Below, piece by piece: positions 28,601 to 51,179 of a stretch of DNA of 64,000 bases (the first letter of the stretch is position 1; each line of letters begins with the position of its first letter). Source of the stretch: a phage. The notes below the pieces were generated by a model, which did not search any database, was not told the DNA's origin, and saw nothing but the letters and a program-made list of their open reading frames with translations. The position numbers were made by a program, and so were the translations under genes. The DNA is taken from the NCBI GenBank assembly GCA_025611195.1, contig GCA_025611195.1_4718.1; one strand, written 5' to 3'.

Positions 28601-31600
28601 TTACTTGTAGGCACCGCAGTGTGCTTTGATGAGGAAAAGCACCGCTTGCATCGGTTTATTGAACTGTTGCCATAACGTCAATGCCGGATGGAACAACCAA
28701 TCTTCCAGGCCAAGAACAATACCGTAGTTAACGACATTATTAACATCGTTCTCAACGTTGAGTTCGCTATCCAGGAATTTATCGATTGAACGCAGGGCCT
28801 GCATGGCGTTGTCAGCAATAAGCCACGCTTCATGCGCTTCACGAGCCGCACGGAGCAATGCTTCCAGTTCGCTGGTGCTGGCTACCGGTAACTCCTCACT
28901 GGTGAGGTCGTCAGAAACCGTAAACTGGCGATTGATACCGGTGTAGATCCACTGCATCAGTTTCGCCGCTTCCTCGTTCGGGTTGTTACGTGTTGTCGCA
29001 TAGGTCGCGCTCATCTTCACGATATGCGTTTCACCAAGATACGCTTTGGACCCAACGCCTTTACGATCGCTGTCTTTCCACGGCTGTACGGTAGCGACCA
29101 TGAGCTTATCCCATTTCTGAATAGGAATACGCTTCAGACCAACAACCGATCCGGCGGATGTTTCGGACTGGTTGCTCTTCCGCACTTCGCCGAGTTCACG
29201 ATCGATAGCAACGATTAATTCACGCGTCATGTTACCAAGCATTTTGATTTCACCCAACGCAGCGATAAGCTTCTTCACATCGGTAATCGGTTCACCACCG
29301 ATGGTAAGATGACGGATGAAACGTTTCAGAATAATCCGTTCTGCTGCTGGGTTACCGCGACGCGCTTTAGCCAACGCTTGCTGTGTTTCGGCGAACAGCT
29401 TATCCCATGGAGCCGTAGCGGCGGTATAGTAACGGTGGTTGGTTTCAATCCAGTTACCGATACGGTTGACCGCACTCTTAACGGTATCCATGAATCCTTC
29501 CATCGCAATTTCGGTAGCTTCGACGTTACCCTGGAAGTTATCAGGACCGATCTCGCGTGCCGCTACCAGAATACCTTCCACCGCACTCACCGCATGCCGA
29601 CCGATAGCCAGATTTCGCTGTGCTTCTTCAGCACGCTCAACGAATTCCACCACTGCAGGATCGTCAACGATTTCCGCCTCGACAACAACACGTGTACCCG
29701 CATCACCTTCCAATGTCTCGATAGTGACAACCGGATCGTTTTCACCAGCAACATCCTGGTACTCTTCCTGTTTGAGTTCGCCGTTATCGGCCGCTGCGAC
29801 AGCGGTGAGTATACGGACGGTAACATCACCGAGTTCTTTCGCAGCGAATCCGTAGACGGTGCATGCTGTTGTCGCAAAGTTCATCAGTGCGCGTGTGCGT
29901 TTAACGATGTAGCCAACGCCGTAGTCACTACCGTTCTTATCGAGGTCGCGGATTAACCGTTCAGCTGTCTCCTGAAGTTGTGTAGCTGCTTTCAGAAGGT
30001 CTTCGTTAAACAGTTTCGTTGACGCATCGATCAGCATATCAACGCTAACGTTAGACGGTACGGCATCATCCTGCTGTTTCATGGCGCTAAGTTCGTCGCG
30101 GAACTTACGGATACCGTCTAAAGCGGCGTCGGCACTATGTCCGAACGCGGCCACGCCAGACATTGTTGTTGCTGTCAGCATGTCCGTATCAGCGTTTGGA
30201 CTTTCGCCTTCTTTAAGATCCTTCAGCTGGTCGAAGAACTTACGGGATGCTTCAGCGATACGTTTGCTGTCTTTTACCGCGTTTACGATTTTATCGACGG
30301 ATTTAGCATCGTTCGCAAGCAGCGTATCGAGTTTGTTCCATTCGACGTTGACTTTCTTTTCATCCGAAGTATTACTCGGTGGAGGAAGCAGTTTCATCAC
30401 CGGTGCTGTGCGTTGTTCTTTGGTCAGCTTGTTGGCCTTCCCTTCGATTTTTTTCTTATTAACACCAAAGAGATTTTTCAAACGCGCCACGAGGGCTTTT
30501 AAGAACTTCGCGACCGCTTCGTAAACCGATTTCAGAATCTGTTTAAAGCGACCCGGCTGCTTTTCCCCGTCTTCCAGATTAAGATCGCTGTTCAGCGCGA
30601 CATCAAGCTGTTTGTACGATTCCATGATGTATTCGTCTTTGATTTCAGGACGAATCTCGAAGCTTTCCATCGGACCTTCAGCCGGACGGAATTCCATTTT
30701 CAGTTCGCCTTGCAGAGTAGGGTCGACAATGGCGATCGCTTCACCCTGACCATCAGCGTTAAAGCGTTCAGCGTAACGAGTACGACGAACAATAACACTC
30801 TTATCCCCATCAAGACGACGTACCACCATGGTGCCAGGAATGTACGGTTGTTCTGTTTCAATGACGGTAACATCTGTCTCACCTTCACCGAGAATAACCG
30901 ATGCGCGCTGTTCAACAACAGGAACATCTAATACACCACGGGCTTCCAGCTCTTGATGAATTTCGAACGACTCTTGTTTCAGATCTTTATCTTCTTCGTT
31001 TTCGTCGTCTTCATCGTCACCTTTGGTGTTTTCATCACCCTCGGTGGTTTTGGTGTCGGCAGCATCAGCATCGGCGTCTGCGTTGGTGGGTTCTTCGGAC
31101 GCAGGTTCGGCGGTGCCGTCCTCGGTAGGCGTTTCATCAGCGTTATCGACATCAACATCGCCTTGCAGTTCTGTTTCCTGAGCAACTGCTTCGGCTTTCT
31201 GCTCGCCGGTATTACCGTCATTAGCGTCGACAGCAGGTTGTTCGTCAGCGACGGTATCTTCAACCTTTTCTACTTTCTCTACGACACGTTTAATCACAGT
31301 GACTTTGATGGGTTCTTCCGTTGTTTTGGTTTCTGGTACCGCATCGGCTACCGCAGGTGCTGTTTCAACAACAGGTTCTGCTTCTTCCGGTTCGACGACA
31401 CTACCTTTAACACCCTCGGTAGTTTCCGCAGGTTGTGCTGCCTGTTCGATTTGTGTTGGGTTGGTTGGATCGATGGCGTTAGCCGCATCCTGAATCTTGT
31501 TCTTCAGGTTATCGCGGTCAGCGTTAACGGTCGGGTCATTGGTCACTTTCGGTGCCGGTGTTTCGGTCGGTGCGTTTGCCGGATACGGGTTCTTCGGCTC

Positions 31601-31984: not shown

Positions 31985-31999
31985 AAAGCGTTATTCCTC

Positions 32000-33106
32000 T
32001 TAAAAGTAATATTTCAGCGCCTCGCGAGAGACCTCAAGCATAGCCGCCGTTGAATTCGTAAAGAACTCGGCATAGCCCACAAGCGGCACCTTGATCCACG
32101 CGGTATACGCTGTAAGGTATCGAGAAAGGGCTACCATAGCATCATCAGAAGCAGTAGTAACTGACAACTGACCTTGTTGACGATAAACGTCGTTAAGTTT
32201 TGCTTGTAGATTCCCTGCAATTTCGAGTAACTCACTGGCGTACTTTTTACGATGGTAACTAACCAGTAAATCAACACCCGTATTCACAGACTCGAGCAGA
32301 ATACCAACTTGTTCTAATGTTGGCATTGTAACCACCATATCCCGTTCAACGGACGGTACGTCCTGGACTTCAAACCGTGCGGATTGAATGGCGAGGGACT
32401 GTTGAATTGATCCGGAACCTGAGGCGGTAACCTGATCGAGTCGCAGCATACGGTTGCCCAGTAACGTTACGTTGACGAGTCTCGATTCGTTCAGCGTACT
32501 GTAGACTTTATGCAATAACGTATACGCATCGCGATTAATCACATCGATTAATGCGGTATCCGTCTGTTTTAAGATAATGTCGAGCGCTCTATCTAACGTA
32601 TTAGCGAACTGCTTGAAATCATCACGGAACGACGAAGACAAGAGATATTCAGCGATTGCCAAATTCTGTTTGTATAATGTATTCCCGGTCGTGAAATCGA
32701 ACCCAAAACTGTTCCCATACCGTAGATGTGGTGCCAGCATTGTCGAAGCTTCGAAGCTTTGCGCGATGGGTTTACGACCAACGGCTTTTGTGTAGTGGCG
32801 ACGGATGTTACTGAGTTCGAGTTGTAGTGCGCGACTACGATCGATAAACCGTGCGATAAACGCAGTAATGTTCCGCAACGTTGTCCAGATTGCATCGATG
32901 ATGGCTTTGATGATTTTCATCGCAAGCTGATTGTACGATTCCATCGTGAGGAGATCAGCACTTTCTGTGGTATAGCTGGTCGGCAGCATACCGCCCGCTT
33001 GTTGATAAATAAGCTGGTGAATTTGTCGTTGCGTTGCTGTCTCTGGCACAGGTAATGTCTTTAACAAGCTTAACGCTTGAATCTGTCCATCATAGGTCTG
33101 CAGCAT
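32000..33106 (-). CDS. inner-body-like paralog (putative head protein)
   Basis: Track start 33169; GAGGAAA SD then ATG 33106, overlapping the upstream stop. Motif MESYNQLAMKIIKAIIDAIWTTL. Confidence 0.7.
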   Translation of the reverse strand: MLQTYDGQIQALSLLKTLPVPETATQRQIHQLIYQQAGGMLPTSYTTESADLLTMESYNQLAMKIIKAIIDAIWTTLRNITAFIARFIDRSRALQLELSNIRRHYTKAVGRKPIAQSFEASTMLAPHLRYGNSFGFDFTTGNTLYKQNLAIAEYLLSSSFRDDFKQFANTLDRALDIILKQTDTALIDVINRDAYTLLHKVYSTLNESRLVNVTLLGNRMLRLDQVTASGSGSIQQSLAIQSARFEVQDVPSVERDMVVTMPTLEQVGILLESVNTGVDLLVSYHRKKYASELLEIAGNLQAKLNDVYRQQGQLSVTTASDDAMVALSRYLTAYTAWIKVPLVGYAEFFTNSTAAMLEVSREALKYYF

Positions 33107-34391
33107 TGCCGGTTTCCTCAAGTTCGAGATGTGCATCAAGATAATCATTAAGACCGTCGATGACGTCACAGACAGTTAACAGGAATCGGGCAAAAGCGAC
33201 CGCCTGGAAACCGACGACGTTACGCGCGATACCCACACGCTGAACGATAGCGGATGAAGCGGTATCGTTGTTGTCCATCTGTTGTAGCAAACGTTCATAA
33301 GGCTGAATCCATTCGTCCTGGTCGGCAAGGCTTGCTTCAAGACACCGTTTAAATTCCAACTGTCGTAGCGTAGACCATAACGTACTTAATGCGTTGATAA
33401 TCGCGTTGGTTCCGTCGATAACATCGTTCAACGGCAAGAAACGGAATCCGTCTTTTGCTGATTGGAAAGATACGGCTTCCCACACAACGCTGAATTGCGT
33501 TCCTGTTGCGTCTTCGATGTCGTGTACTTTAAGATAGGAAGCACCAACAGGTACGTCAACGACGATATCGTCTGTTCCGGTAGGCTTTAACGGCTTCTCG
33601 CATAACGCATCGTTGATGGCCTCGAGAATATTCTCCCAACAGGCTTCGTTTTCTGCAGCGATACCTTCTTTGTTATCCGCTGATGGTGCTTTTAGTAGCT
33701 GCATTAATAACGGATCGAGTTGACGATGCCATGCTGCGAGGATCCCTGTGTTCGTTACGATGTTTTCTGCGGTTTGCCGTAAATCAGCAATACTGCTTAC
33801 CGCACCGCCTTTCGGATGAAGATATCGCCAGTTGTAGGGAAAGTTCTCCCAGAATGCGTTATCTTCATTAACATCGTATTCGGAAATAGTTTTCAACGCA
33901 GCCGCTTTCTTTAATAACGGCTTCACCTGACGAACGAATCGACGATAACAACGATTACAGATATCGATCGCGTAGCGGTATAACTCGTTCATGTAAAGCC
34001 ATAATGCACGGGTTGCTTCTTTTGAGGTCTTGTCAAAACTTTCCATGTTCAAGCTCATCCCGCTGGAAGTTTCCTCTTCCAGACCCTCGATGATTTGGTT
34101 TGGGTCCATTCCCATTCCGGCTGCTGCGGTTGTTGCGATATGTTTGATCGTGCTGATATCGCGTTCTTCAACTTCAGTCATGTTTGGGACAATATCCAGC
34201 CGGAGTTTATTTAATGTTTGAAGGTGTTGTTCACCTTCTTTCATCACCGTGTTTGTTTCGTCGATTGAGTGAAACTGATTCTCAATATTACTGGCATCGA
34301 GAATATTGCCAGCGATACCGAACGATTCTACAGGTTCATCATCAATCCCTTGAAACAACGATGTCATGGGTTGTTGTAACACGTTTTCCAT
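33090..34391 (-). CDS. inner-body-like paralog (putative head protein)
   Basis: ATG 34391; motif MESFDKTSKEATRALWLYMNELY. Confidence 0.75.
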   Translation of the reverse strand: MENVLQQPMTSLFQGIDDEPVESFGIAGNILDASNIENQFHSIDETNTVMKEGEQHLQTLNKLRLDIVPNMTEVEERDISTIKHIATTAAAGMGMDPNQIIEGLEEETSSGMSLNMESFDKTSKEATRALWLYMNELYRYAIDICNRCYRRFVRQVKPLLKKAAALKTISEYDVNEDNAFWENFPYNWRYLHPKGGAVSSIADLRQTAENIVTNTGILAAWHRQLDPLLMQLLKAPSADNKEGIAAENEACWENILEAINDALCEKPLKPTGTDDIVVDVPVGASYLKVHDIEDATGTQFSVVWEAVSFQSAKDGFRFLPLNDVIDGTNAIINALSTLWSTLRQLEFKRCLEASLADQDEWIQPYERLLQQMDNNDTASSAIVQRVGIARNVVGFQAVAFARFLLTVCDVIDGLNDYLDAHLELEETGNAADL

Positions 34392-34443
34392 TTGGGACTC
34401 CTACGTAGGAAAATCTTGGCGGGTGATCATGTCCGCCATTTAC

Positions 34444-34466
34444 CTTCTGAACCGTTGATTCAGAAG
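34444..34466. other. hairpin in the 5' leader of gene 33090-34391
   Basis: cttctgaa-ccgttga-ttcagaag, 8-bp perfect stem. Confidence 0.4.
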
Positions 34467-34497
34467 TCAAAAGATAACCGGATACCAACGCCATAAA

Positions 34498-34529
34498 CCT
34501 TCCTCCAACCCAACAGGGAAGGAGGAAGG
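34498..34529. terminator. GC-rich hairpin (CCCTCTCCC family)
   Basis: ccttcctcc-aa-ccc-aaca-ggg-aa-ggaggaagg; after the stop of 34540-35829. Confidence 0.6.
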
Positions 34530-34539
34530 GATATAGTGG

Positions 34540-35829
34540 TTATGCTTTTTCGGTCACGGCGTTAAAGTATTTCGCTGCAGCAAATACGGCATCCGCATAT
34601 TGACGTATCGAAGCGCGAAGAATCTTGGTTGACAGTACCGTACTTAAACGCGCCATTTCAGAAACCGCGCCTACATAAGGACGGATGGTTTCACGATCGG
34701 CTTCAGGCAACTTGTCGAGCATATCACCCCACTTCGTTTTGATTTTCATACCGTTGAGTTTAGCGGTACGCTCCACAGAACCAGCCAAAGCTTCAACCAT
34801 GTGAAAATAAGAGGGGTCGATCGTACGGAACACGTTAAGATAGGAAGTTAACGCACCCTTCAGTTCGTTATCGTCTTTGAAAATGTTTGCGTTCTCTATC
34901 TCACCGGCCACCGTCATCTCGGCTTCAACCCGAATATTTTTCACCAACGTATAGGCTTTAATCGCGTCACGTTCGTTTTCAACAGCATCGAGACCTTGAA
35001 TAACGAATTCCTTCCCACCGCTCTCTGGAAAAACAACTTTATTCAGCGCGGATTTGATCGCCAGCAGGTATTTGTCTAAGATAGACGGAAGTAGAGTTAG
35101 GTCGGTGAGGTCTGCGACCTTTTTATTGATATCAGCTACTTGCTTAAACAGTGAATCTACCCCGCTTGCGCTTGCAGCGAGTTGTTCGATATGCTTGCTT
35201 GCAAACATGGCATTCGCTGACTTCGCGTTAGGGAACATATTGACCATATTTTCAGTGGGTTTATCCAGTTGTTTGATATGGCGTTCACCTTTATTCACGG
35301 CGGTTGCGATGCCGACAATTTTGTTGTATGCGATGACCAGGTTCTTGAACAGCATCTGGAGCAGTTTGAACAGCTGCTCAGCGATATTTGCAATGATTAC
35401 CCAGACAGCATATAACGCTTGTGCTGCGCGTTCTTTAAAGCCTTCCAATACAATAGCTTGCCCTTCCACTAACTTATCATTAGCCTGGAACATGTCTTCA
35501 TCGGACATCCCCAGGTTAGCCGCTGATGTCGAAGCGATCTGACGGATAAGTGCGACGTCGCTCGCACGTGCTTCCAAGATCGTTGGTGCGATCATGTATG
35601 CTGTATCTTCCAGCGTTGCTGAGGTACGCACTGCAATTTCAGCCAGTTCGCTGGATTCATCGATTGTCTCGTCGGTACGTTGAATCACCAACTCAACTTC
35701 ACCCTCTTCAATTTCTGCGTTAGGATCGTGCTGCTCCGCCGGAATCGTCGCGAGAAGATCTTCGGCGCTCAATAGAGAGAGTTCGAATGCGTTTTTATTG
35801 ACGTTATCAAAAAGAGAAATACGTGCCAT
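34540..35829 (-). CDS. inner-body-like paralog (putative head protein)
   Basis: AAGGAA SD before ATG 35829; N-terminal AxE-rich propeptide; motif QAIVLEGFKERAAQALYAVWVIIANIAEQLF. Confidence 0.8.
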   Translation of the reverse strand: MARISLFDNVNKNAFELSLLSAEDLLATIPAEQHDPNAEIEEGEVELVIQRTDETIDESSELAEIAVRTSATLEDTAYMIAPTILEARASDVALIRQIASTSAANLGMSDEDMFQANDKLVEGQAIVLEGFKERAAQALYAVWVIIANIAEQLFKLLQMLFKNLVIAYNKIVGIATAVNKGERHIKQLDKPTENMVNMFPNAKSANAMFASKHIEQLAASASGVDSLFKQVADINKKVADLTDLTLLPSILDKYLLAIKSALNKVVFPESGGKEFVIQGLDAVENERDAIKAYTLVKNIRVEAEMTVAGEIENANIFKDDNELKGALTSYLNVFRTIDPSYFHMVEALAGSVERTAKLNGMKIKTKWGDMLDKLPEADRETIRPYVGAVSEMARLSTVLSTKILRASIRQYADAVFAAAKYFNAVTEKA

Positions 35830-35838
35830 GTTAGTTCC

Positions 35839-37155
35839 TTAACCTTTGGTATAGGCTTTAACGAGAGTGTTGATAAATGAAGTCAGTGCGCGAAGATATT
35901 GGTAAGCGAATTGGTTTTCAATACGGTTCTCTTTACCGCAAAGCAGAATCGCGCGCTTAACGAGTTTAGGGTAGATCTCGACGTACGGTTGGTAGCTCGC
36001 ATCAAAATTCTGCTCGTTGAAGCGTTTCATGGTGATTTCCTGGATGCGCTCCATGGTGCGAATTTTATTGCGAGAGAACATCTCAGAGAAAGCGTGTCCG
36101 CGTTTTGTTACCATCAACAGATCTTTCGCGAACGTCAGCTGTCGAACGCTACGCAAATCGTCAGGTGTTGGTAGGACGTACGTTTCCGGTTCACTATCCC
36201 ATTCAACATCTTCAACGATAATATCCAAGTCGAGGTAACGTTTAACCGCATCGATGATGTTGTCTTTTGACGCATCGAATTCTTTCAAGAAGACTGCGCC
36301 GTTGATGTAGCGGATACGTTTTCCGGAAACCGTTGGGGTGATAACGTCAGCACCTTCCACAGAACCACGATTTTCCAGCGTTGATTTGACAGCGTGCAAG
36401 AAAGACAGATAATCAACGGGAAGTTTTTCGACCTTATCTAAATGGAAGTCGAAGATGTTTAATCCTAAACCATCAATAACTGAATAGCCGTCCGATTTAA
36501 GGAACATCTGATTGAAGGTATCGATGTTGCTTTTCAGTGTGTCTACACCACCAACTTTGTTACGGTTAGGGAAAAGTGCCCACCATTCAGGTTTAAACGC
36601 AACCTCTTTATTTTCCGTGTATTTGCCTTTGGGCATTTGTTCGAGGTTCGCAACGGCTTTCTGAAAATTGCGTGTTTCGTCGTAAACAAGACGGGTGAGC
36701 TTCTCGAAGGCTGCTGCCAGAGTCAGGGCAATATCAACGATGATATCCCAGATCTTTTTCATGGCTTTTACAACGGTGTCCTTAAACCCCTCAACAACCA
36801 AAGCTTCTCCAACCTCAACACGATCGGTTGGAGTCAGCAACGCTTCGGAGGGCAGACCCAGAGCAATCGATGCGGATTCTTGAACGTTACGAACTAATGC
36901 AACGTCACAGTAGTTAGCCGATTCGATAGTCGGAGCAACATCAAAACTGATTTCCCGCAGTGCAGCAACAGCAGGGAAAGCACGATCGAGTGCATCTTCA
37001 TGTTCGTCGATTGTCGCCAAACGTAATTCAACACCATCGGCATCGATGACTTCAGCGGTAGGCTCCACAGCAAGCGCTTCAGCAACAATAGGATCTTTTT
37101 CAAACGCCTCAAGGCTGATATCGCCTTGTGTCGTAAATAGTGGTATGTGTACCAT
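35839..37155 (-). CDS. inner-body-like paralog (putative head protein)
   Basis: Track start TTG 37179; GGAGA SD then ATG 37155. Motif EALVVEGFKDTVVKAMKKIWDIIVDIAL. Confidence 0.8.
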   Translation of the reverse strand: MVHIPLFTTQGDISLEAFEKDPIVAEALAVEPTAEVIDADGVELRLATIDEHEDALDRAFPAVAALREISFDVAPTIESANYCDVALVRNVQESASIALGLPSEALLTPTDRVEVGEALVVEGFKDTVVKAMKKIWDIIVDIALTLAAAFEKLTRLVYDETRNFQKAVANLEQMPKGKYTENKEVAFKPEWWALFPNRNKVGGVDTLKSNIDTFNQMFLKSDGYSVIDGLGLNIFDFHLDKVEKLPVDYLSFLHAVKSTLENRGSVEGADVITPTVSGKRIRYINGAVFLKEFDASKDNIIDAVKRYLDLDIIVEDVEWDSEPETYVLPTPDDLRSVRQLTFAKDLLMVTKRGHAFSEMFSRNKIRTMERIQEITMKRFNEQNFDASYQPYVEIYPKLVKRAILLCGKENRIENQFAYQYLRALTSFINTLVKAYTKG

Positions 37156-37203
37156 GTGTTGTCTCCAGTAATGATTCAAAAGATAAACCTGGACGGCATA
37201 TAA

Positions 37204-37235
37204 CCCTCTCCCAACCCGTAAGGGAAGGGAGAGGG
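37204..37235. terminator. GC-rich hairpin downstream of the highly expressed 37258-38583 gene
   Basis: ccctctccc-aa-ccc-gtaa-ggg-aa-gggagaggg; minus-strand TATATG follows (plus 37197-37202), 42 nt before ATG 37155. Confidence 0.65.
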
Positions 37236-37257
37236 AATATATCAGTCTATTAACTGA

Positions 37258-38583
37258 TTACTGCTGTGCTGCGTCAGCCGGTTTCTCAGCCGCCTGGCCG
37301 CCGTACTCTTTCAGCATTTTAGCAGCGCCGTCCAGGACAGCGTTACCTGCCTGAACACCGTATTTCATCAGACCAGTCTGCGGGTTCACGTAGCAGGAAC
37401 GTGCGTCTTTCAGTGCAGACAGTACAGCTTGAACACGCTGTTTTTCCTGAGCGGAAACTTCGCCTTTCTTAGACAGATCAGCTTCCATATCGTCACCGAA
37501 TTTAACAGCGTCTTTGAAGCCCTGGGATTTCTTACCGATGTTGCCTTTCAGCGCCAGCAGTTTGTCAGCCAGTACTTCAACACCGCTAACCGCAGCGGCC
37601 AGCTGATTCAGGGACAGGACGGTAGCTTCAACTTCTTTTGCTTCACCGGAGCGTTCCCAGGTTACTTTACCGTCGTTGGTTTTGAAACCCCAACCTGCCG
37701 GGCCAGCAACATCTGCGATTGCCGGTGCGTTCAGTTTATCAGCGTACTCGGTGTGAGATTTAGCAACAACGGTGTTGACGAATTTATCAGCACGGTCGTC
37801 AGCAGCCTTCATTGCTTTCTCGAAGGTGTCAGCGATTTTGGTCGCACCGGTAACCAGATCGTCGCCACCGATGTAACCTGAAATGCCGCTACCCAGGGTA
37901 ACTTTGGCATTTTTAGCAGCGCCTTTACGTTTGGCAATCATTTCTTTCAGTTTAGCAGCGCGTGCTTTCAGTTTGGTTGCGCCGTCGAAGATACGATCCA
38001 TGAACTTCACGAAGGTTTCCCAGGAAGTTTTCAGGAAGTTCTTGATGGTTGCCCACAGTTTCTGCCACCATTTTTGTTCTTCCAGGAAGATCATGTTGGT
38101 TGCGTCGTAACGGGAAGCGGAACCACCGAAGCTTTCGAAGGACGGCATGGTTTCCGGCAGTTTGAAACCGATAGTACCACACAGGCGTTTCAGGTTACGC
38201 ATGTGTTCCTGAGCGGTTTGTGCAGACATACCACCGTCTTTTAGGTAGCTTTCGGTTGCAACAACGGTTTCCGTCAGTTCGTCCATGGCTTCGTCCATGG
38301 CTTCTGCGGTTTCGTCGTCTTTTGCAATTTCGATAACAACAGCATCAACCTGCTCGATATCGCCACGAACTTCGATAGCCAGTTCGGTTTCAGCTGCGGT
38401 ATCTTCAGCGATTTCAGCGCGTTCGGTCAGTTCAGCTACAACGGTTTCATCTGCTGCTGCTGCGGCATCAGCTGCCGGTTCTGCTTCAACGGTTGCCGCT
38501 GCATCTGGATCGATCTCAGCAGCCAGTTGAACCAGCTGTGCGTTAGATGGATTTGCGACAAGACGATCAAAAATAGAAGGCAT
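37258..38583 (-). CDS. inner-body-like paralog, highly expressed (host-optimised codons)
   Basis: AAAGGAAAC SD before ATG 38583; Ala/Glu-rich N-terminal ~150 aa with many A-x-E sites; codon usage like the capsid gene; motif ESFGGSASRYDATNMIFLEEQKWWQKLWATIKNFL. Confidence 0.8.
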   Translation of the reverse strand: MPSIFDRLVANPSNAQLVQLAAEIDPDAAATVEAEPAADAAAAADETVVAELTERAEIAEDTAAETELAIEVRGDIEQVDAVVIEIAKDDETAEAMDEAMDELTETVVATESYLKDGGMSAQTAQEHMRNLKRLCGTIGFKLPETMPSFESFGGSASRYDATNMIFLEEQKWWQKLWATIKNFLKTSWETFVKFMDRIFDGATKLKARAAKLKEMIAKRKGAAKNAKVTLGSGISGYIGGDDLVTGATKIADTFEKAMKAADDRADKFVNTVVAKSHTEYADKLNAPAIADVAGPAGWGFKTNDGKVTWERSGEAKEVEATVLSLNQLAAAVSGVEVLADKLLALKGNIGKKSQGFKDAVKFGDDMEADLSKKGEVSAQEKQRVQAVLSALKDARSCYVNPQTGLMKYGVQAGNAVLDGAAKMLKEYGGQAAEKPADAAQQ

Positions 38584-38608
38584 AATTTGTTTCCTTTACA
38601 ATAAATTG

Positions 38609-38651
38609 CACATTAGCTAATGTGGCTTAAGTGGACCGTTAGCCCACTTAA
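38609..38651. other. two adjacent hairpins upstream of the highly expressed 37258-38583 gene
   Basis: cacattagctaatgtg (perfect 16-nt palindrome) and ttaagtgg-accgttagc-ccacttaa. Confidence 0.4.
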
Positions 38652-40077: not shown

Positions 40078-40116
40078 GAGTGAGCACCTATGCTATTTCG
40101 AAACAGGTTACGTGTA

Positions 40117-41223: not shown

Positions 41224-41257
41224 ATTGAAATCCTTATTTACAAATAAAGGAAAGAAA

Positions 41258-42463: not shown

Positions 42464-42466
42464 TAA

Positions 42467-45460: not shown

Positions 45461-45481
45461 AACAAAATAGCATGAGCATAA

Positions 45482-45513
45482 CCCTCCTCCAACCCAACAG
45501 GGAAGGAGGAGGG
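45482..45513. terminator. GC-rich hairpin between convergent genes
   Basis: ccctcctcc-aa-ccc-aaca-ggg-aa-ggaggaggg; CATA 45477-45480 and TATG 45516-45519. Confidence 0.6.
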
Positions 45514-45522
45514 AATATGTTG

Positions 45523-48315
45523 TTATCTTACGTTGCTGCTATTCTGCTGTTCGCTGAACCAACAGTACACCTTGAGATCGGTACCGTATTTCAATGCGAT
45601 ATACGCATTCAGTGCGGCACAGAACAAAGACGCGAATGCCCATATCAGCGAAGGATCAACATCTTCCGTTACTACCGGGGGAGTATTATCCGGTTCCCAT
45701 GATGGAGAACTGTCCATGAACGTCGTGTACCATTCCCGCCGTTGTTCTTCAGTGGTAAAGTCGCTATGAGGTTCCAACGCTTCTTTTGCCAGACGTCGAT
45801 ATTCGAACATATGCGTTGCTAAAGCCGATGAGTTACCAGATTCGCCTTCATAGTTCGGATCCACCGCATAACAGAGTTCTGTGGAATTTAACAAAGCAAT
45901 CGCTTGTATGATGCTGTCGGCAGTGCCTGCACTATAGAGCTCGATAGACCGCGAAAGCTTTTCACAGAACGTATTTAACGCGGCAGGATTGGACACCTGA
46001 AGGTCGAGGCCTAATGTCCACGGATAGTTACTGAACACGCCCGTAAACCGCGGCATAACACCCAACAGATGTTGTCCGATTACGGCACGGTTATAAACAG
46101 CCCGGTTATAGACTTGAAACGCAGCCTCCAAGGCTTGGTTATAATGACGACGAAGTTCATCACGCGAGTTGCGGAATCTGTTTGCCGCAAGACTTGTGGC
46201 TGCGACGCTACAAACATCGTAATCGGTGGACGAGAGCACAGTTTCGTTAAGATCGAACGCTTCCTGTTTCAACGTTCCGCTAACAGCCGCTGCTTCGCTG
46301 TTTGCTTTATCGACAACTGTACTCAAAGCGTTGATGTAACGCTTAGCTCGGACCTCCAACCATTGTGCGATGCCGAGAATATCCACCGCAGCTTTAGCAA
46401 GGTCGCGTGCGTTCACGATTTCGTTCTTCAACGCACCTAAACCTTTATTCTCAGGCGATGAGGCTTGTTGACGAATCATGCTGTTCAACATGGTAAGCAG
46501 ATTATCCAACTCGTGTCCGCTGACCTTGTTACGCGCATCGGTAACTGGCCCTTGCAGGAATTTACGGCAACCATCGTTGTATCGAATCAGTTTATCCACA
46601 TCGATCGATTCGTTCGTGGATTCCTTGAACTGATCCTTCAATTCTTCACGGTAGTCATGGATTTCACTTGCGAGATTATCGATAGTGATACCATCGTGTC
46701 CAAGAAGAACTTTATTGAAGTTACCTTTCTCGAATGCAAGAGCAAGACCTTCACGAATCTTAGCGAGTTTATCCTGATCGAGTTCACGACCGTTCGATAG
46801 CTCTTTCACTTCCGAGCTGATTAATGCCGAAACGTTACCCAGATTGTCGGTAACCCCTTTGAACGCTCCCGACCAAATCGTTCCTGCTTCAGCGTATTTC
46901 GCAATGGTCTGAATACCGACGGTGTGCAGCGATGCTAAACGTTTCTTCGTGCCTTCGGTAAGCAATGCGTCTTTAGCTCGCGTAAGTTGACTGTTATTAG
47001 CTTCCGCCTGCTGAATCGCTGCTTTCGCACTTCCATTACGCCAGCTCTTAACCAGCCAATCAACCAAACGTTTTAGGATATTGACGGTGTATTCCATTGT
47101 CCGCCGTAACGTTTCCCACGCGCTTTCTGCGGTATAGATGCCGTACCCTTCCATCTTCGTTGGGTCAAAGAAACCTTCCTGCACGAGATCGGTACGTGTG
47201 TAGCCATCAGCAGCTTCTACTTCCGCCTGGGTTTTATCCCAGAAGTCGTCACTCTTTGCAGCAATCGCTGTATCTTTAACGTCCAGGATGATCTGACCAA
47301 CCGTTTGTGCAAACAGCAAGGCCGCACGTACCGATTGTGCGAACATCCGCTGATATTTGATTCGAACGCATTGCATCTGGGTTAGCAGATTCAGTTGTGC
47401 GATCCCATCCAAGGTGCTATCCTGAGCAAGCCCTTCGGCTTTAGCGATAACCTGTTTTACACGTTCAGCGACATCACCGTACTGCTGGCAAACATCCCGC
47501 AGAATACGTACCGCGAAGACCCCGGTACCGATATAGTTCAATAGGTCTTTTAACGACCATTCGGTCGGACAATCGGTCGGCGCAATAGGGAGTAAGCAAC
47601 CATCACCGTCCATGAATCTCTCTAATGCGTTAATATCCTGATTTTCTACGCTCATGGGGATATCGACATCAGCCGCTTGCAGATCCAGCATCTGTTGTAG
47701 GATGTTGGTATCGGCTTGTACAAGCGTCGCAAGCGCTTGGCTGTGTGCGATTATTGGTAACGCAGGCGACCATACTGCAGCAAGCTTGTCGACGTGACGT
47801 TGAATGGCATACCCCATATCCTCGATCACATCGGGATGCTCGATAACCCCCTGAAGCGTTTGATGTAGCTCACCGAGTTGCTGAGACAGATCGACCATCA
47901 TGGTGTTGAAGGTTTCGCCATCCTCTTTGTGGTTGTCCAGACGCTCGAGTTCATGTCGAAGCAATGTAACGAGCTGTCCGTTGCCTTCTTGCTTCAGCTT
48001 GCTTTCCATTAACGTAATGGCTTTATCGACGATCTGACACGCTTCACGAAAACCGGTTGTGGAAGGAAGCTCTGTCCATAACGCCAGCGGTTTACCGTCA
48101 AGGGCTTCCGGCATCGATAACGAAAGCATAGACAGTTGTTGACGTGATACTTGCTGTTCACGGTGTAATGTTTCTTTTAACGCCAGGAGATCGTCAAGAA
48201 ACGCGCCGTTAAGGGTGGTCGTACGCGGTGTTGAATTAATACCGTCAGTTAACGATTCAAGCACCAGGAGACCGTTATCAGCTGAAGAGAGTCCCGCGGC
48301 AAGATATTTGTTCAT
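45523..48315 (-). CDS. large inner-body-like family member (930 aa)
   Basis: GGAGTG SD before ATG 48315; contains DLVQEGFFDP...WETLRRTMEYTVNILKRLVDWLV matching the family helix. Confidence 0.75.
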   Translation of the reverse strand: MNKYLAAGLSSADNGLLVLESLTDGINSTPRTTTLNGAFLDDLLALKETLHREQQVSRQQLSMLSLSMPEALDGKPLALWTELPSTTGFREACQIVDKAITLMESKLKQEGNGQLVTLLRHELERLDNHKEDGETFNTMMVDLSQQLGELHQTLQGVIEHPDVIEDMGYAIQRHVDKLAAVWSPALPIIAHSQALATLVQADTNILQQMLDLQAADVDIPMSVENQDINALERFMDGDGCLLPIAPTDCPTEWSLKDLLNYIGTGVFAVRILRDVCQQYGDVAERVKQVIAKAEGLAQDSTLDGIAQLNLLTQMQCVRIKYQRMFAQSVRAALLFAQTVGQIILDVKDTAIAAKSDDFWDKTQAEVEAADGYTRTDLVQEGFFDPTKMEGYGIYTAESAWETLRRTMEYTVNILKRLVDWLVKSWRNGSAKAAIQQAEANNSQLTRAKDALLTEGTKKRLASLHTVGIQTIAKYAEAGTIWSGAFKGVTDNLGNVSALISSEVKELSNGRELDQDKLAKIREGLALAFEKGNFNKVLLGHDGITIDNLASEIHDYREELKDQFKESTNESIDVDKLIRYNDGCRKFLQGPVTDARNKVSGHELDNLLTMLNSMIRQQASSPENKGLGALKNEIVNARDLAKAAVDILGIAQWLEVRAKRYINALSTVVDKANSEAAAVSGTLKQEAFDLNETVLSSTDYDVCSVAATSLAANRFRNSRDELRRHYNQALEAAFQVYNRAVYNRAVIGQHLLGVMPRFTGVFSNYPWTLGLDLQVSNPAALNTFCEKLSRSIELYSAGTADSIIQAIALLNSTELCYAVDPNYEGESGNSSALATHMFEYRRLAKEALEPHSDFTTEEQRREWYTTFMDSSPSWEPDNTPPVVTEDVDPSLIWAFASLFCAALNAYIALKYGTDLKVYCWFSEQQNSSNVR

Positions 48316-48330
48316 AAAACACTCCGTTGG

Positions 48331-48361
48331 CCTAGGGGAAGGTTTTCAGCCTTCCCCTAGG
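48331..48361. terminator. 12-bp perfect-stem hairpin between 48375-51179 and 45523-48315
   Basis: cctaggggaagg-ttttcag-ccttcccctagg. Confidence 0.55.
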
Positions 48362-48374
48362 GTTATAAACACAA

Positions 48375-51179
48375 TTAAGCTAATTTACCGAAACCGGCTT
48401 TCTGTAGTTTCTCGTTGATGATTTTCGCTTCAGCGAAGACGTAATCGCGGTAGGCGGTCACTAACGCATCCACACGTGAACGCAAGGCTTCTTCGAAGCT
48501 ATACCACGCTGCGATTTCACGAATCTGTGCGTTGATATAATCAACGGTTGAGCGAAGCTCGGTTGCGTTTTCTTGCGGGATGGCTTTCACCTGGCGAGCA
48601 ACGTCATTTAAACGACGGAACTGTGTTTCGATTTCTTTAAACTTACTGTCGGCAAGTTTGCTGAATTCGTCACCGGAACGGGTAAATAACAGATAGCTGT
48701 TGCCGTCAAGTGCGGTCGCTAACTGCTGAAGTACGTTGGTGTCCGGATACACAGGAGTACCGCTTTGCAATACTTTCTCACCGAATTCCGCGAAGTCCTT
48801 CGGCGGTAAGTGTGCAGACGTTGTCAACTCGTTGAAACGGAAAGTCAGCGAATTATCATAAAGCATCCGGTACGCTTCCATACCCTGTTTCATGGTACCA
48901 GCCAGGTTAGCCAGACGCGGAGCAATCTCACCTTCTTTAGCGCGTTTCTGATCTTCTAACGCCCCTTCGAGTTCTTTACACTGGTCATTCAGATACACGA
49001 TACGATCGGGACGCAGACGACGCATCTCACGAAGAATAGTATCCAGCTTACCTTCCTGGAAATAACCTAACGTTAAAGACGTACACGCTTGCTGAAGACG
49101 ATCGAACACCGGTAAGGTCACCATCTCTTTACGGATACCATCAACAATCGCAGAAACAGCCGAAAGTTTCTGTTCGGTGGTTAATGGAGCGTCAGAGACC
49201 GACTTGCTGGGCGCGCCAACAACGTTACGCATTGCGTCGGTATCCTCGGTTTTATCAACCTCTTTACGAACGTTCTCATCAGGAACATAAACGTTCGCGT
49301 TACGTTTCGCCTGCTTGATGGCGTCGTTGGCTGCTTTTTCGGTGGCCGCTACACTATCGGCACGTTTCTTCAAGAGTTCAATAATCCAGAGCAACAGACG
49401 ACGAATCGCTGTATAGGCTGTCGTGATGATGACACCGATAACAGCCATCTTCATGATACCGAACGATTCCATGGTCGGCTCTAACGCCCGGTCTGGCATA
49501 TACCGTTCACGCAGTTCCAGATAGATCTGCTCATCTGGTTTGCTGATCTCACCACGATGCGAAGTCCGATAGATGGCTTCGTCAATCTCAACAAGATCTT
49601 TACGTGCTTGACGGTCTGTTTCGGTCAAATAAGCGCAGCCGGATACGTCGTCTTCAAAACTTTCGAACTTAAAGAAATCGACAACCATCTTGGCAAGCGC
49701 CTCTTTCTTAGCAGGATCGAGCGTCTTCGCATCCTCTTTTTGCTTATCCATTTTTTCCTTGAATTTCTCTTTATAGTCATTCAAGGGTTTTACCGCTCTT
49801 GCCTTCAACGCGTTATAGATAGCTTTCCACTCATCGTCACGTTCGAGGACAATGAAATGGTTCTTGAGTTCGAAAGCACGATAGCGTGCAACGAGCTGTT
49901 CTACCTGAATGTGAGCGAGTTGGATATCCATTAACCAACGCGACATCGCCGAGATCAAACGGCTATAAGCGAACAACGTTTGGTAGGTTAACTTCATGTA
50001 TGTTTCATACAGCTCAATATCGCCGCTCTGAATATTGGCTGTTGGATTCATTTCCTTTGTTGCCCTGAAGACCTGTTCTGCTTCTCTCAGCGTCTTTTCG
50101 AACTTAACGTCATTAAACGCAGTGAATGGTTCAGCCAACTCATGCATTTTATCGTGGAGTTCGCGGATCCAAGATTCCTTGCTGTCGCGGATGGTGTTTT
50201 CATCATGGAGCGCAGTCTGATGTTTTCGTACCCATTCTTCCACGATATCAGCAGCTGCAACCACCTGGACACGATCTGAAATCAATGGGACAATCGCGTG
50301 AAGTGCCCCAACACATTCTGGCGTGTCCCAGTGTTTCTGGAGGTCACCACGGAAACGGTCGATGTCTTTTAAGGTGGTACCTAAGTCAAGGAAAGTGCCG
50401 CCATTATGACTCATTTGTGCGACAAGATCGGCAAATACCTTTTGTTTTTCGATGACAAAAGGAACCATCCGCATAAGCCATTCAGCAGTTGCTTTAGCCT
50501 TTTCTTTCAGATTTTTGTCGGCGATTTCTTTAAGGTTAATCGCGCTACTGTATCCTGCAAGTTCGTTGTAGACGTCGTTAACCGTCATCTCTTTATCCAA
50601 CATTTCTTTGAAACGTGGATAATCTGCACCTAACGCGTCGATGACTTCTTGGATGATGTCGTCTGTGGTGGCGATAAATTTATTTGTGCCACCGTAATGT
50701 TTCCAGATTTTCTGTAGCATCTTCTTAAAGAATTCGAAGACGAATGTCCAGATACGCTTGATGAGTTCCCAGACTTTCTTCGCGCCATCGACAAACAGTT
50801 TAGAGACCTTGGCAACGAATCCTTCCTGTACCAACTCAACGCCGTTACGTGATGGGATTTCCGTGAAGAAAGCATCTGGCAGTTGTTTCGGGAACGCATC
50901 GCCAAGACGCATACGTAGTTCAGGTACATCGGCACGAGAGATACCGCGTGTTACTAACTGTTCGTGAAGACGAACATTTTCTTCACCAGAGGCTACGAAT
51001 TCGTTAACGTCAAATGAAACCAGTTCTTGATCTTCGGTGGTGACGACGCTTGAACCATCACTGGTTTGGATGTCTTCGTCAGGGAACGCCATCAGCATAC
51101 CGTGACGCATTTCAACCACTCCGTAATCGGTTGCTAAACCGAATTCGTTGTGATCGGGAGTAATAACTGGGATACTCAT
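48375..51179 (-). CDS. large inner-body-like family member (934 aa) with one hydrophobic helix
   Basis: ATG 51179 overlaps upstream stop; motif VELVQEGFVAKVSKLFVDGAKKVWELIKRIW; hydrophobic segment MAVIGVIITTAYTAI. Confidence 0.75.
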   Translation of the reverse strand: MSIPVITPDHNEFGLATDYGVVEMRHGMLMAFPDEDIQTSDGSSVVTTEDQELVSFDVNEFVASGEENVRLHEQLVTRGISRADVPELRMRLGDAFPKQLPDAFFTEIPSRNGVELVQEGFVAKVSKLFVDGAKKVWELIKRIWTFVFEFFKKMLQKIWKHYGGTNKFIATTDDIIQEVIDALGADYPRFKEMLDKEMTVNDVYNELAGYSSAINLKEIADKNLKEKAKATAEWLMRMVPFVIEKQKVFADLVAQMSHNGGTFLDLGTTLKDIDRFRGDLQKHWDTPECVGALHAIVPLISDRVQVVAAADIVEEWVRKHQTALHDENTIRDSKESWIRELHDKMHELAEPFTAFNDVKFEKTLREAEQVFRATKEMNPTANIQSGDIELYETYMKLTYQTLFAYSRLISAMSRWLMDIQLAHIQVEQLVARYRAFELKNHFIVLERDDEWKAIYNALKARAVKPLNDYKEKFKEKMDKQKEDAKTLDPAKKEALAKMVVDFFKFESFEDDVSGCAYLTETDRQARKDLVEIDEAIYRTSHRGEISKPDEQIYLELRERYMPDRALEPTMESFGIMKMAVIGVIITTAYTAIRRLLLWIIELLKKRADSVAATEKAANDAIKQAKRNANVYVPDENVRKEVDKTEDTDAMRNVVGAPSKSVSDAPLTTEQKLSAVSAIVDGIRKEMVTLPVFDRLQQACTSLTLGYFQEGKLDTILREMRRLRPDRIVYLNDQCKELEGALEDQKRAKEGEIAPRLANLAGTMKQGMEAYRMLYDNSLTFRFNELTTSAHLPPKDFAEFGEKVLQSGTPVYPDTNVLQQLATALDGNSYLLFTRSGDEFSKLADSKFKEIETQFRRLNDVARQVKAIPQENATELRSTVDYINAQIREIAAWYSFEEALRSRVDALVTAYRDYVFAEAKIINEKLQKAGFGKLA

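Follow-up and report, generated by a model that had tools for sequence, protein, structure and literature searches.

We consider it likely that eight genes (g1 to g8) in a 64,000-nucleotide stretch of phage DNA (GenBank assembly GCA_025611195.1, contig GCA_025611195.1_4718.1; the window hereafter) are late structural genes whose products are loaded into the prohead and cut after a conserved glutamate, where g1-g6 encode PF12699 paralogues, g8 a vertex subunit, and g7 a neighbour. The feature common to the eight proteins is the N-terminal module of the PF12699 family, which would consist of four parts: an acidic leader that is poor in Lys and Arg; a short conserved helix (G-[IVM]-S-[RKQ]...); one or two conserved Glu sites, here of the form x-[M/V/L/Q]-E↓[G/S]-[F/Y] (the arrow marks the mapped or predicted cut); and the first long amphipathic helix of the helical body, which contains Trp.

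Gene set and PF12699 paralogues

The DNA of the window is that of a nucleus-forming jumbo phage, a chimallivirus of E. coli closely related to Goslar, with which it shares the gene order at a nucleotide identity of 93.5-96.5%. The eight ORFs singled out in a sequence-only reading of the window are all present on the minus strand and are the annotated Goslar CDS gp53-58, gp64, and gp65 (Table 1); the ATG starts chosen in that reading for 32000-33106 and 35839-37155 are those in the Goslar annotation. The reading described a paralogous family of head-type proteins with one very large and acidic member, which is g1 (1,127 aa, with a pI of 4.1 over its first 455 aa). The family description holds for g1-g6 (gp53-gp58), which are PF12699 paralogues, but it does not hold for gp65 as an inner-body or ejection protein, and the profile evidence for gp64 is weak. 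Nor is the family a large expansion, as had been proposed: eight members are ordinary, as PF12699 proteins also number eight in phiKZ and seven in phiPA3. The core idea nevertheless survives, because similarity to phiKZ head proteins was found (g6 scores 64 bits on PF12699) and all eight Goslar orthologues are present in purified virions by mass spectrometry (10.64898/2026.04.21.720040), at about 50 to 2,150 copies each (10.64898/2026.04.21.720040). The assignment of gp53-58 as PF12699 paralogues, the eight virion proteins, and the injection of gp58 are already in the 2026 Goslar preprint (10.64898/2026.04.21.720040), and the window brings no new kind of system.

Table 1. Genes and predicted maturation sites in the window (nucleotide positions in the window; residue numbers refer to each protein).
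Feature	Position	Strand	Description
g1, gp53 orthologue, 1,127 aa	28601..31984	-	95.1% identity to gp53; acidic 1-455 (pI 4.1), two motif-plus-helix copies, PF12699-like domain at C-terminal 811-1127
g2, gp54 orthologue, 368 aa	32000..33106	-	PF12699 paralogue; short N-terminal segment, 56 aa
g3, gp55 orthologue, 433 aa	33090..34391	-	PF12699-type paralogue
g4, gp56 orthologue, 429 aa	34540..35829	-	PF12699-fold paralogue
g5, gp57 orthologue, 438 aa	35839..37155	-	PF12699-type paralogue
g6, gp58 orthologue, 441 aa	37258..38583	-	Canonical, dominant PF12699 internal head protein
g7, gp64 orthologue, 930 aa	45523..48315	-	Lineage-restricted virion protein
g8, gp65 orthologue, 934 aa	48375..51179	-	Vertex-binding-complex protein, phiKZ gp86 counterpart
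g1 first copy	30515..30667	-	Predicted PME440↓SF, IME455↓SY, then helix
g1 second copy	29393..29500	-	Predicted AME829↓GF + helix; opens PF12699-like domain
g2 site	32834..32941	-	Predicted TME56↓SY + helix; aligns with PF12699 family site 2
g3 site	33936..34043	-	Predicted NME117↓SF + helix
g4 site	35338..35445	-	Predicted VLE129↓GF + first helix; aligns with gp93 ISLE↓D, gp86 ISQE↓
g5 site	36685..36792	-	Predicted VVE122↓GF + first helix; motif, HMM match
g6 double site	38029..38253	-	Predicted ATE111↓SY, SFE150↓SF (family site 1), then IFLEE, helix QKWWQKLW
g7 internal double site	47026..47178	-	Predicted VQE380↓GF, KME389↓GY + helix ESAWETLRR...WLVKSW
g7 N-terminal module	47995..48156	-	Predicted VSRQQL..MPEAL..PLALWTELPSTTGF..TLME104↓SK, about residues 54-107
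g8 N-terminal module	50718..50963	-	Predicted RGISRADV..FFTEIPSRNG..VQE119↓GF + helix
g8 second motif	49344..49502	-	Predicted TME571↓SF + hydrophobic helix; boundary of second folded domain

Genes g1-g6 lie after the orthologues of gp61, gp60, and gp59, in an operon syntenic with that of the phiKZ gp89/gp90/gp91 homologues, and the gp59 orthologue scores 159 bits on PF25618. Genes g7 and g8 are located outside this operon, in the neighbouring gp86 slot. A promoter and terminator scan of 28000-39500 gave no excess over the shuffled expectation.

Relative to the Pfam gathering threshold of 27 bits, which we used as the cut-off for PF12699 membership, g6 scores well above (64.1 bits), and g1 (25.7 bits, E = 8e-6, residues 811-1127), g2 (21.6 bits), and g5 (20.9 bits, residues 30-154) fall below; g3, g4, g7, and g8 give no Pfam PF12699 match. 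Profile-profile comparisons by hhalign, in which the best reversed-sequence decoy set a noise floor of P = 2.5e-4, linked PF12699 to the g6 family (P = 3.8e-20) and, over 346 columns and full length, to a family profile of g3, g4, and g5 (P = 1.3e-9). The latter three are also connected by BLAST (g3 to g4 at 2e-7, g3 to g5 at 3e-7, g4 to g5 at 3e-17), g2 was reached by iterative HMM searching (E = 1.1e-5, residues 67-380, before it was included), and g1 carries the PHROG assignment 'internal head protein'. A tblastn search with g6 against 50,697 phage records returned Goslar plus one weak match and nothing else, the family having diverged beyond the reach of BLAST; iterative HMM searches run locally from g2, g4, g6, g7, and g8 likewise gave no match outside Goslar.

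Predicted structure, which had been suggested as a check, showed a helix-rich PF12699-type fold for g4, the one member so analysed with AF2 and Foldseek. The AF2 model (pLDDT 71.5; 80-95 in the domain) has a helix beginning at E129, and the best 50 Foldseek matches on BFVD are all from chimalliviruses (E down to 2e-7, probability 1.0), several of them carrying the annotation internal head protein or virion structural protein. Foldseek against the PDB gave no match (best E = 0.17) and recovered no solved gp65 or gp86 structure. AF3 is reported to give the same fold for Goslar gp53-58 (10.64898/2026.04.21.720040), where gp53 is present at about 330, gp54 at about 70, and gp58, which is injected, at about 2,150 copies per virion (10.64898/2026.04.21.720040). 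The g4 protein is the sole hypervariable member, with only 76.5% identity to Goslar gp56.

The N-terminal module and its predicted cleavage sites

The shared helix motif noted in the sequence-only reading is real. The eight proteins (5,100 aa) contain E-[GS]-[FY] 16 times, and the other 46 ORFs of the window (14,969 aa) contain it 11 times, so that 3.7 would be expected in the former from the background rate (Poisson P = 2.2e-6); in 5,000 shuffles that preserved composition, the count never exceeded 10. Trp follows the motif within 40 residues in 8/8 family proteins compared to 6/46 other ORFs. Moreover, an HMM of the N-terminal module, trained solely on PF12699 proteins of nine other phages and thus on no Goslar or window sequence, matched seven of the eight proteins exactly at the motif positions (E = 2.7e-11 to 0.05, where unrelated ORFs appear from about E = 0.2), including g1 at both 470-520 and 820-874. 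A second HMM, trained on gp86-slot proteins of other phages and likewise free of Goslar and window sequences, had g8 as its best non-training match (E = 1.4e-6, residues 73-153). The motif-plus-helix unit is present in two copies each in g1 and g8, and g7 has the N-terminal module and one internal copy.

The motif is also retained in a distant lineage (lineage 2; 25-44% identity), as E-[GS]-[FYW] at the orthologous sites examined: residues 119 and 568 of the gp65-like protein (IAE119↓SF, with numbering identical to that in g8, and SME568↓GF for E571), 102 and 141 of the gp58-like protein (TTE102↓SY and SFE141↓SF, corresponding to both g6 sites), 139 of IP2 (VLE139↓GF, the counterpart of the g4 site), and 96 and 429 of the gp64-like protein, where ALE429↓SF and a helix-proximal TTE↓GAW stand at the place of the g7 internal double site. 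Among g3, g4, g5, and the gp56 alleles, neither E129 nor F131 varies, and G130 hardly does.

The segments that precede the motif were said to be acidic and dense in S/A/G-x-E. Each of them has an acidic pI (4.05-4.67), but the density of [SAG]xE is elevated in only about half of the genes: markedly in the g4, g5, and g6 leaders (3.1-4.7 per 100 aa versus a background of 1.26) and slightly in g1 and g8, with low values in g2, g3, and g7. The motif does not always directly follow an N-terminal segment either, being far from the N-terminus in g1 (residues 440/455/829) and g7 (380/389).

That the prohead protease cuts these proteins is supported by alignment of the motif with mapped sites. In g2-g5, the C-terminal copy of g1, and g8, the motif aligns with verified prohead-protease sites in SPN3US gp53/gp54 and phiKZ gp86, and g6, g7, and the first g1 copy have a two-site version of the module. 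The motif Glu of g4, g8, and g2 is family site 2 by alignment, which is the mapped cut in SPN3US gp53 ((E)↓GWKETLK) and gp54 ((E)↓SLWDDIK) and the cut of phiKZ gp86 at SQE-122 (phiKZ sites are taken second-hand from PMC5694885 and PMC11297242); SPN3US gp54 AQE-124↓SY is family site 1. By contrast, the proposed S/A/G-x-E rule does not describe the motif sites, since the residue three before the cut is more often V, K, P, T, I, or N than S, A, or G, and in this position the sites depart from the phiKZ/SPN3US cleavage rule. In the capsid protein, the cut is likely at CESEE↓L near residue 153, which is without the G/S-F/Y feature, and the first 157 residues are missing from the Goslar major capsid protein.

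Observations on Goslar virions are consistent with N-terminal removal. The solved gp65 chain begins 14 residues past E119, with the first 133 residues missing from the model. Among the peptides listed in the Goslar peptide table, which are those starting with 'A', the gp53 leader peptide AAQPAETTEGVK has an area of 662 versus 287,000 for the body peptide AATQLQETAER, and two testable N-terminal peptides of gp64 are absent where its body peptides are present. For gp58 (6 spectra), gp65, and gp53, virions nonetheless yield leader peptides among those listed, which implies that removal is incomplete or that some copies are uncut. From the alignment with mapped sites and the low leader-peptide intensities in Goslar, we infer that N-terminal propeptides are removed after Glu. 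The exact positions in the eight window proteins are predictions from alignment (Table 1), including the putative new N-termini GFFDPTK/GYGIYTAESAWETLR at the internal g7 sites.

gp65, gp64, and alternative readings

The g8 protein has 97.5% identity to solved Goslar gp65 (PDB 11fg/36za), in which the 36za chain starts at K134, and gp65 has been placed in the capsid vertex binding complex (10.64898/2026.04.21.720040). An inner-body or ejection role was considered for gp65 and ruled out, as it is a modelled capsid vertex-binding-complex protein. Its N-terminal module (73-153) is followed by a second motif and hydrophobic helix (571-612), and it matches the gp86-slot family by hhalign at P = 3.5e-6. 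A direct comparison with PF12699 gave a short alignment at P = 0.003, and neither g7 nor g8 matched PF25617 at E <= 0.1, a family on which phiKZ gp86 scores 516 bits. No internal repeats emerged when g1, g7, and g8 were each compared with themselves by BLAST, and hhalign of g8 or g7 to itself gave no significant second alignment. The second g8 motif is weak (P = 0.004-0.011), and a fusion origin of gp65 from two gp86-slot genes, which would draw on this motif, is speculative.

The g7 protein had only 4 matches among 1.84 billion representatives, and its homologue search gave nothing besides proteins that are 97-100% identical. The distant gp64 homologue P0156 was absent from the viral, metagenome, and genome contig collections scanned, and its locus was reached through a search for contigs that encode it. 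The N-terminal module HMM matched g7 at 397-428 (E = 1.5e-4) and the slot HMM at 54-107 (E = 4.7e-3). Comparisons by hhalign with the g8 N-terminus (P = 4e-4) and with PF12699 (P = 2.3e-4) are both at the decoy noise floor, P = 1.7e-3 was obtained against the gp86-slot family, and the AF2 model (pLDDT 44.5) is unusable. The protein gp64 is present in Goslar at about 110 copies per virion (10.64898/2026.04.21.720040), which is roughly two per non-portal vertex subunit. Gene g7 adjoins the gp63 orthologue (gp87 homologue), and g8 adjoins the gp66 orthologue (gp85 homologue). Nearby, gp67 (51646-52965) contains an HEVGH string without a match to a Pfam peptidase family.

The N-terminal module HMM also matches gp86-slot proteins that were absent from its training (E = 1e-7 to 5e-5), and the phiKZ gp86 family aligns with the PF12699 profile at P = 1.1e-7 over 308 columns; an iterative HMM search seeded with phiKZ gp86 had a PA1C homologue as its sole match. 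These profile comparisons provide evidence that gp86-type proteins are diverged relatives of the PF12699 internal head proteins with a homologous N-terminal module. As judged from its sequence, gp65 clearly carries a PF12699-type N-terminal module, and support is weaker for the lineage-restricted gp64. It is somewhat unlikely that only gp53-gp58 are true paralogues and that gp64 and gp65 share with them a portable loading-cleavage signal and amphipathic helix, acquired by module exchange or convergence, on unrelated bodies. Consistent with unrelated bodies are the weak PF12699 comparisons of g7 and g8 given above, the lack of a Pfam match for g8, the failure of the g4 model to recover solved gp65 or gp86 by Foldseek, and single-sequence alignments that span only 27-86 columns around the helix.

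Alternatively, E-[GS]-[FY] could be structural, as a helix cap or in docking to the capsid wall or scaffold, with the cuts made upstream at S/A/G-x-E in the acidic leaders. We regard this as unlikely. It would account for the residue three before the cut, for the leaders of g4, g5, and g6 that are rich in canonical [SAG]xE, for a g6 motif that is family site 1 rather than the helix-proximal site 2, and for E571 of g8, which lies within the solved chain with both flanks included, so that any cut there frees no fragment. However, the SPN3US cuts (E↓GW, E↓SL, and E↓SY) fall exactly on the homologous positions, the phiKZ gp86 cut lies after the aligned SQE, the gp65 model starts just past E119, and lineage 2 retains the motif despite its low identity. 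An artefact of chance or composition in Glu-rich helical proteins is extremely improbable. The motif is short, and reversed helical sequences reach the hhalign noise floor, but the enrichment over shuffled sequences, the landing of two independently trained HMMs on the exact motif positions, and the conservation of these positions in lineage 2 effectively refute it.

Proposed maturation and relation to known systems

In the loading and cleavage that we favour, the leader would bring each protein into the assembling prohead and would keep a basic body neutral (body pI 8.4-9.3 in g2, g4, g5, and g6). A prohead protease of the phiKZ gp175 / SPN3US gp245 type would then cut after the conserved Glu, and most of the leader would exit the head or persist as small capsid-bound fragments; N-terminal fragments of phiKZ gp93 and gp162 remain on the capsid wall after cleavage. 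The helical bodies would remain in the head, the PF12699 proteins with the DNA and gp65 at the vertices, and ejection of the genome would carry the PF12699 bodies along into the early infection vesicle. PF12699 proteins are reported to be co-injected with DNA (10.64898/2026.04.21.720040); the loading role of the leader in the window phage and the ejection of members besides gp58 are proposed by extension. More tentatively, and with some doubt, the inner-body/ejection and gp86-type proteins may form one superfamily with a cassette for loading and then cutting after Glu, which would have been duplicated in gp53, gp64, and gp65 with its sites shifted to x-[M/V/L/Q]-E↓[G/S]-[F/Y], and gp64 may be vertex-associated and fill the unassigned density beside gp65.

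Goslar gp53-gp58 and phiKZ gp92-gp97, gp162, and gp163 (PF12699) resemble g1-g6 in operon synteny near gp89-gp91 homologues, and the phiKZ inner-body proteins are also alike in their helical fold, leader, two-site architecture, and high virion copy number. In contrast, the Goslar-lineage sequences are very divergent from them, Goslar has one dominant member (gp58, about 2,150 copies) rather than several at 100-200 copies, and an inner body is not seen in Goslar cryo-EM (10.64898/2026.04.21.720040). The window motif has Met, Val, Leu, or Gln two before the cut and G/S-F/Y after it, whereas phiKZ sites have S, A, or G three before the cut. SPN3US gp53 and gp54 (paralogue family A) are PF12699 members with leaders of 125-137 aa that contain two close Glu cuts (E↓SY, E↓GW, E↓SLW) aligned with the window motif; however, SPN3US has only two paralogues, its sites are strictly A-x-E, and cleavage is experimental there and predicted by alignment here.

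The g8 gene shares the slot between gp87 and gp85 homologues with phiKZ gp86 (PF25617), 201phi2-1 gp148, and SPN3US gp47. In the capsid model its product takes the position of phiKZ gp86, it has the same N-terminal module, and phiKZ gp86 is cut at SQE-122 directly before the equivalent helix. Unlike phiKZ gp86, g8 has no PF25617 match, is twice as long (934 versus 422 aa) with a second domain that occupies the place of phiKZ gp28, and has an additional gene of 930 aa, gp64, after it in this lineage. The T4 internal proteins IPI-IPIII work alike, in that an N-terminal capsid-targeting peptide is removed after Glu by the prohead protease gp21 and the basic proteins are packaged with DNA and ejected, as proposed here. 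Kinship in sequence or fold to the T4 proteins is not expected, and their leaders are 10-19 aa compared to 56-455 aa in the window.

The role of the abundant PF12699 proteins is a key unsolved question in the chimallivirus life cycle (10.64898/2026.04.21.720040). The analysis specifies where each of the eight proteins is predicted to be matured and adds evidence that gp86-type vertex proteins are diverged relatives of the internal head proteins with a common loading-and-cleavage module. It also identifies gp56 as the one paralogue that is hypervariable in natural populations, which makes it a candidate for host interaction after injection.

Gene orthology and the shared motif

Escherichia phage vB_EcoM_Goslar is a nucleus-forming jumbo phage, and the window is a close variant of it, with the same gene order and 93.5% (28601-38583) and 96.5% (45523-51179) nucleotide identity. 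The eight ORFs on which the sequence-only reading was built (g1-g8) are all present at the coordinates given there, and their proteins are 95-98% identical to the Goslar orthologues for all but g4 (76.5% to gp56). Residues about 200-350 of g4 are just 58-60% identical to gp56, and gp56 alleles in public data fall into classes of 95-98, 81-83, 76-78, and 67% identity, which suggests recombination or diversifying selection within one phage species. Assemblies labelled as E. coli, Salmonella, Shigella, or Enterobacter hormaechei also contain Goslar-like genomes (230-245 kb contigs) in hundreds of cases, and a TPA E. coli record from a 135-kb contig matches g7 at 100% identity. This is unexpected for a virulent jumbo phage and could reflect a carrier state or contamination.

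Features discussed in the text (g1-g8 on the minus strand; / marks a predicted or, in the text, also a mapped cut; L-numbers are comparison loci)
Feature	Location	Detail
g1	28601-31984	Goslar gp53
g2	32000-33106	Goslar gp54
g3	33090-34391	Goslar gp55
g4	34540-35829	Goslar gp56
g5	35839-37155	Goslar gp57
g6	37258-38583	Goslar gp58
g7	45523-48315	Goslar gp64
g8	48375-51179	Goslar gp65
g1 acidic leader	30659-31984	residues 1-442
g1 apparent leader repeat, copy 1	about residue 107	GSLRIRFTPSNGGVTME/DG, by eye
g1 apparent leader repeat, copy 2	to E440	GELKMEFRPAEGPME440/SF, by eye
Major capsid protein	15219-17441	
gp67 orthologue	51646-52965	phiKZ gp84 homologue
phiKZ gp86	L002 22949-24217	PF25617 vertex-binding protein; compared with phiKZ gp92-gp97
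Second lineage	L011 1-22815, L012 1-22937 (Logan SRR29937422, SRR33371453)	gp67-gp66-gp65-gp64; gp63, gp62; gp61-gp60-gp59-gp58-IP
Second lineage gp65-like		E119/SF, E568/GF
Second lineage gp58-like		E102/SY, E141/SF
Second lineage, next internal-protein paralogue		VLE139/GF
Second lineage gp64-like		E96/GF, E429/SF

The shared motif and helix are real. The eight proteins (5,100 aa) contain E-[GS]-[FY] 16 times, compared to 3.7 expected (Poisson P = 2.2e-6); the remaining 46 ORFs of the window (14,969 aa) contain it 11 times, and 0 of 5,000 shuffles reached 16. A Trp-containing helix follows the motif in 8/8 proteins. In the AF2 model of g4, this helix (residues 129-160) begins at the motif Glu. 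Two motif-plus-helix copies are present in both g1 and g8, and g7 has one N-terminal module and one internal copy. The motif sits where the sequence-only reading placed it only in part, since in g1 and g7 it is found hundreds of residues into the protein. Of the proposed acidic, A-x-E-rich propeptides, the acidity was borne out, since the N-terminal segments of all eight proteins have pI values of 4.05-4.67 and few Lys or Arg residues, but [SAG]xE density is clearly raised in g4, g5, and g6 only. g2, g4, g5, and g6 have basic bodies (pI 8.4-9.3). By eye, the g1 leader appears to repeat a small unit ending ...ME; self-BLAST of g1 detected no repeat.

Relationships to PF12699 and gp86-type proteins

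By sequence, g6 is a canonical member of PF12699, the phiKZ-type internal head proteins (64 bits; hhalign P = 3.8e-20). On PF12699, g1 scores 25.7 bits over its C-terminal 317 residues, and an iterative search brings g2 into the family (E = 1.1e-5, residues 67-380). g3, g4, and g5 are related to one another (BLAST 3e-17 to 3e-7), and the family of the three aligns with the PF12699 profile along its entire length (P = 1.3e-9). The g4 model has pLDDT of 80-95 over residues 160-429, and its top 50 matches in BFVD (E down to 2e-7) are all chimallivirus proteins, several of which carry the annotation of internal head protein or virion structural protein. These assignments agree with a Goslar preprint of April 2026 (10.64898/2026.04.21.720040), in which AF3 places gp53-gp58 in the PF12699 fold, all six are measured in virions (about 2,150 copies of gp58, about 330 of gp53, and 50-70 of gp54-gp57), and gp58 is injected. 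The PF12699 paralogue cluster, with all members in virions, is already published for Goslar. Eight members is not the large expansion first proposed and is ordinary for the group; PF12699 proteins number eight in phiKZ and seven in phiPA3.

The proposed family of eight holds for g1-g6; g8 is different in kind, and the matches of g7 are individually weak. An alignment of 308 columns links the phiKZ gp86 family (PF25617) to the PF12699 profile (P = 1.1e-7), and the family of Proteus phage 10, Ea35-70, and RP12 proteins encoded in the gp86 slot, between the gp87 and gp85 homologues, also matches that profile (P = 3.7e-6); the best reversed-sequence decoy reached 2.5e-4. Moreover, phiKZ gp86 carries the same two Glu sites as PF12699 proteins, SLEQY and ISQE/, the latter a mapped cut. 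From these profiles, PF25617 and PF12699 look like one superfamily, gp86-type proteins in general are relatives of internal head proteins, and the homology probably extends to the whole body. g8, which has no Pfam match of its own, shares 97.5% identity with Goslar gp65, whose structure is solved (PDB 11fg, 36za) and which the preprint assigns to the capsid vertex-binding complex. Through its N-terminal module, g8 matches the gp86-slot family (P = 3.5e-6). The 36za chain starts at K134, 14 residues past the predicted cut at E119. For g7, an HMM of this N-module (1.5e-4), a gp86-slot HMM (4.7e-3), and hhalign against the g8 N-terminus (4e-4) and against PF12699 (2.3e-4; best decoy 2.5e-4) are each weak and agree in position; its AF2 model failed to give a usable fold. 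Because of the N-module link of g8 and the weak but position-consistent matches of g7, we regard g8 as a distant family member and g7 as a probable one. The g7 orthologue, gp64, is not discussed in the main text of the preprint, and Table S4 lists about 110 copies per virion (10.64898/2026.04.21.720040).

Two genes occupy the gp86 slot in several chimalliviruses (about 22940-25830 in L005, L006, L004, and L008), whereas phiKZ and SPN3US have one; the RP12 pair are clear paralogues (E = 5e-10). One type of slot gene has a hydrophobic first helix that resembles both SPN3US gp47 (...ALE/SWANAGKVGLVV...) and the second motif of g8 (residues 571-612). In the sequence file of 36za, a chain with the sequence of Goslar gp65 residues 134-934 (55 copies) is named "Inner-peripheral baseplate spoke gp32", probably a mislabel in the deposition.

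The N-module and predicted prohead-protease sites

We aligned PF12699 proteins of nine other chimalliviruses (phiKZ, PA1C, an SPN3US-like phage, PhiEaH1, Proteus phage 10, Ea35-70, RP12, EarlPhillipIV, and OBP). Their conserved N-terminal module consists of a short helix and then site 1, x-[LMF]-E-[SNDAG]-[FY], followed after 12-16 residues by site 2, x-x-E, and the first long body helix. Both sites coincide with cuts mapped experimentally in SPN3US gp54, AQE-124/SY (site 1) and ARE-137/SLW (site 2); gp53 of that phage matures at AQE-125/GW (PMC10052503). The cut of phiKZ gp86 at SQE-122 (PMC5694885) corresponds in the alignment to site 2 in gp93 and E129 in g4. An N-module HMM trained without any Goslar or window sequence and searched against 398 ORFs matched at the motif in g6 (2.7e-11), g7, g2 (1.9e-3), g1 (2.6e-3, both copies), g4 (3.1e-3), g5 (0.014), and g3 (0.051), with unrelated ORFs appearing from about E = 0.2 upward. 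This HMM also matched gp86-slot proteins outside its training set (E 1.3e-7 to 4.5e-5). Conversely, for the HMM trained on gp86-slot proteins from other phages, the best new match was g8 (1.4e-6, residues 73-153); this HMM also matched PF12699 proteins and g7 (residues 54-107).

Most likely, the leader would carry each protein into the prohead, and the prohead protease would cut behind the conserved Glu. Leader fragments would then exit the head or remain on the capsid wall, and the basic helical bodies would remain with the DNA and later be ejected into the early infection vesicle, with gp65 staying at the vertices. In phiKZ, residues 14-84 of gp93 and 19-134 of gp162 form capsid-bound fibres after cleavage (PMC11297242). 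An N-terminally truncated phiKZ gp93, made in the cytoplasm, was the control for protein that does not come into the cell from the virion. The Goslar peptide table gives limited support, as the entries used are those for peptides beginning with A. Among these, a gp53 leader peptide has an area of 662 compared to 287,000 for a similar-sized body peptide, and two candidate gp64 N-terminal peptides are absent while body peptides are present. For gp58 (area 4,880, six spectra) and gp65 (area 451), leader peptides do occur, at low levels. We infer that these proteins are cleaved in the window phage, with the caveats that the residues ahead of the predicted cuts are unusual (Met two positions ahead at 7/16 sites, S/A/G rare three positions ahead) and that the likely capsid-protein site lacks the G/S-F/Y feature.

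Residues 1-157 of the major capsid protein are missing from the Goslar structure, and the Glu residues closest to that boundary (E150, E152, and E153) make CESEE/LVQLS a candidate maturation site unlike the G/S-F/Y sites of the internal proteins; the leader also contains LSME38/SA. The gp67 orthologue contains HEVGH, a HExxH metalloprotease-like string, and matched no Pfam peptidase family; its Proteus phage 10 homologue was annotated by the depositors as a BepA-like protease.

Conservation in a second lineage

Among 1.84 billion representatives, distant relatives of g7 came solely from a second jumbo-phage lineage, which was not found in the phage, viral-contig, metagenome, and GTDB collections searched. 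Its locus has the Goslar gene order, including gp65-like (942 aa) and gp64-like (976 aa) genes. At 25-44% protein identity, E-[GS]-[FY] is retained at the orthologous positions examined, with TTE/GAW in the place corresponding to the helix-proximal site of the gp64-like protein. In the literature covered, we found no description of the N-module homology between gp86-type and PF12699 proteins, of explicit site predictions with a lineage-specific site signature, of the two-module layout of gp53, gp64, and gp65, or of gp56 hypervariability. The N-module homology, site predictions, two-module layout, and gp56 hypervariability are useful leads of modest surprise.
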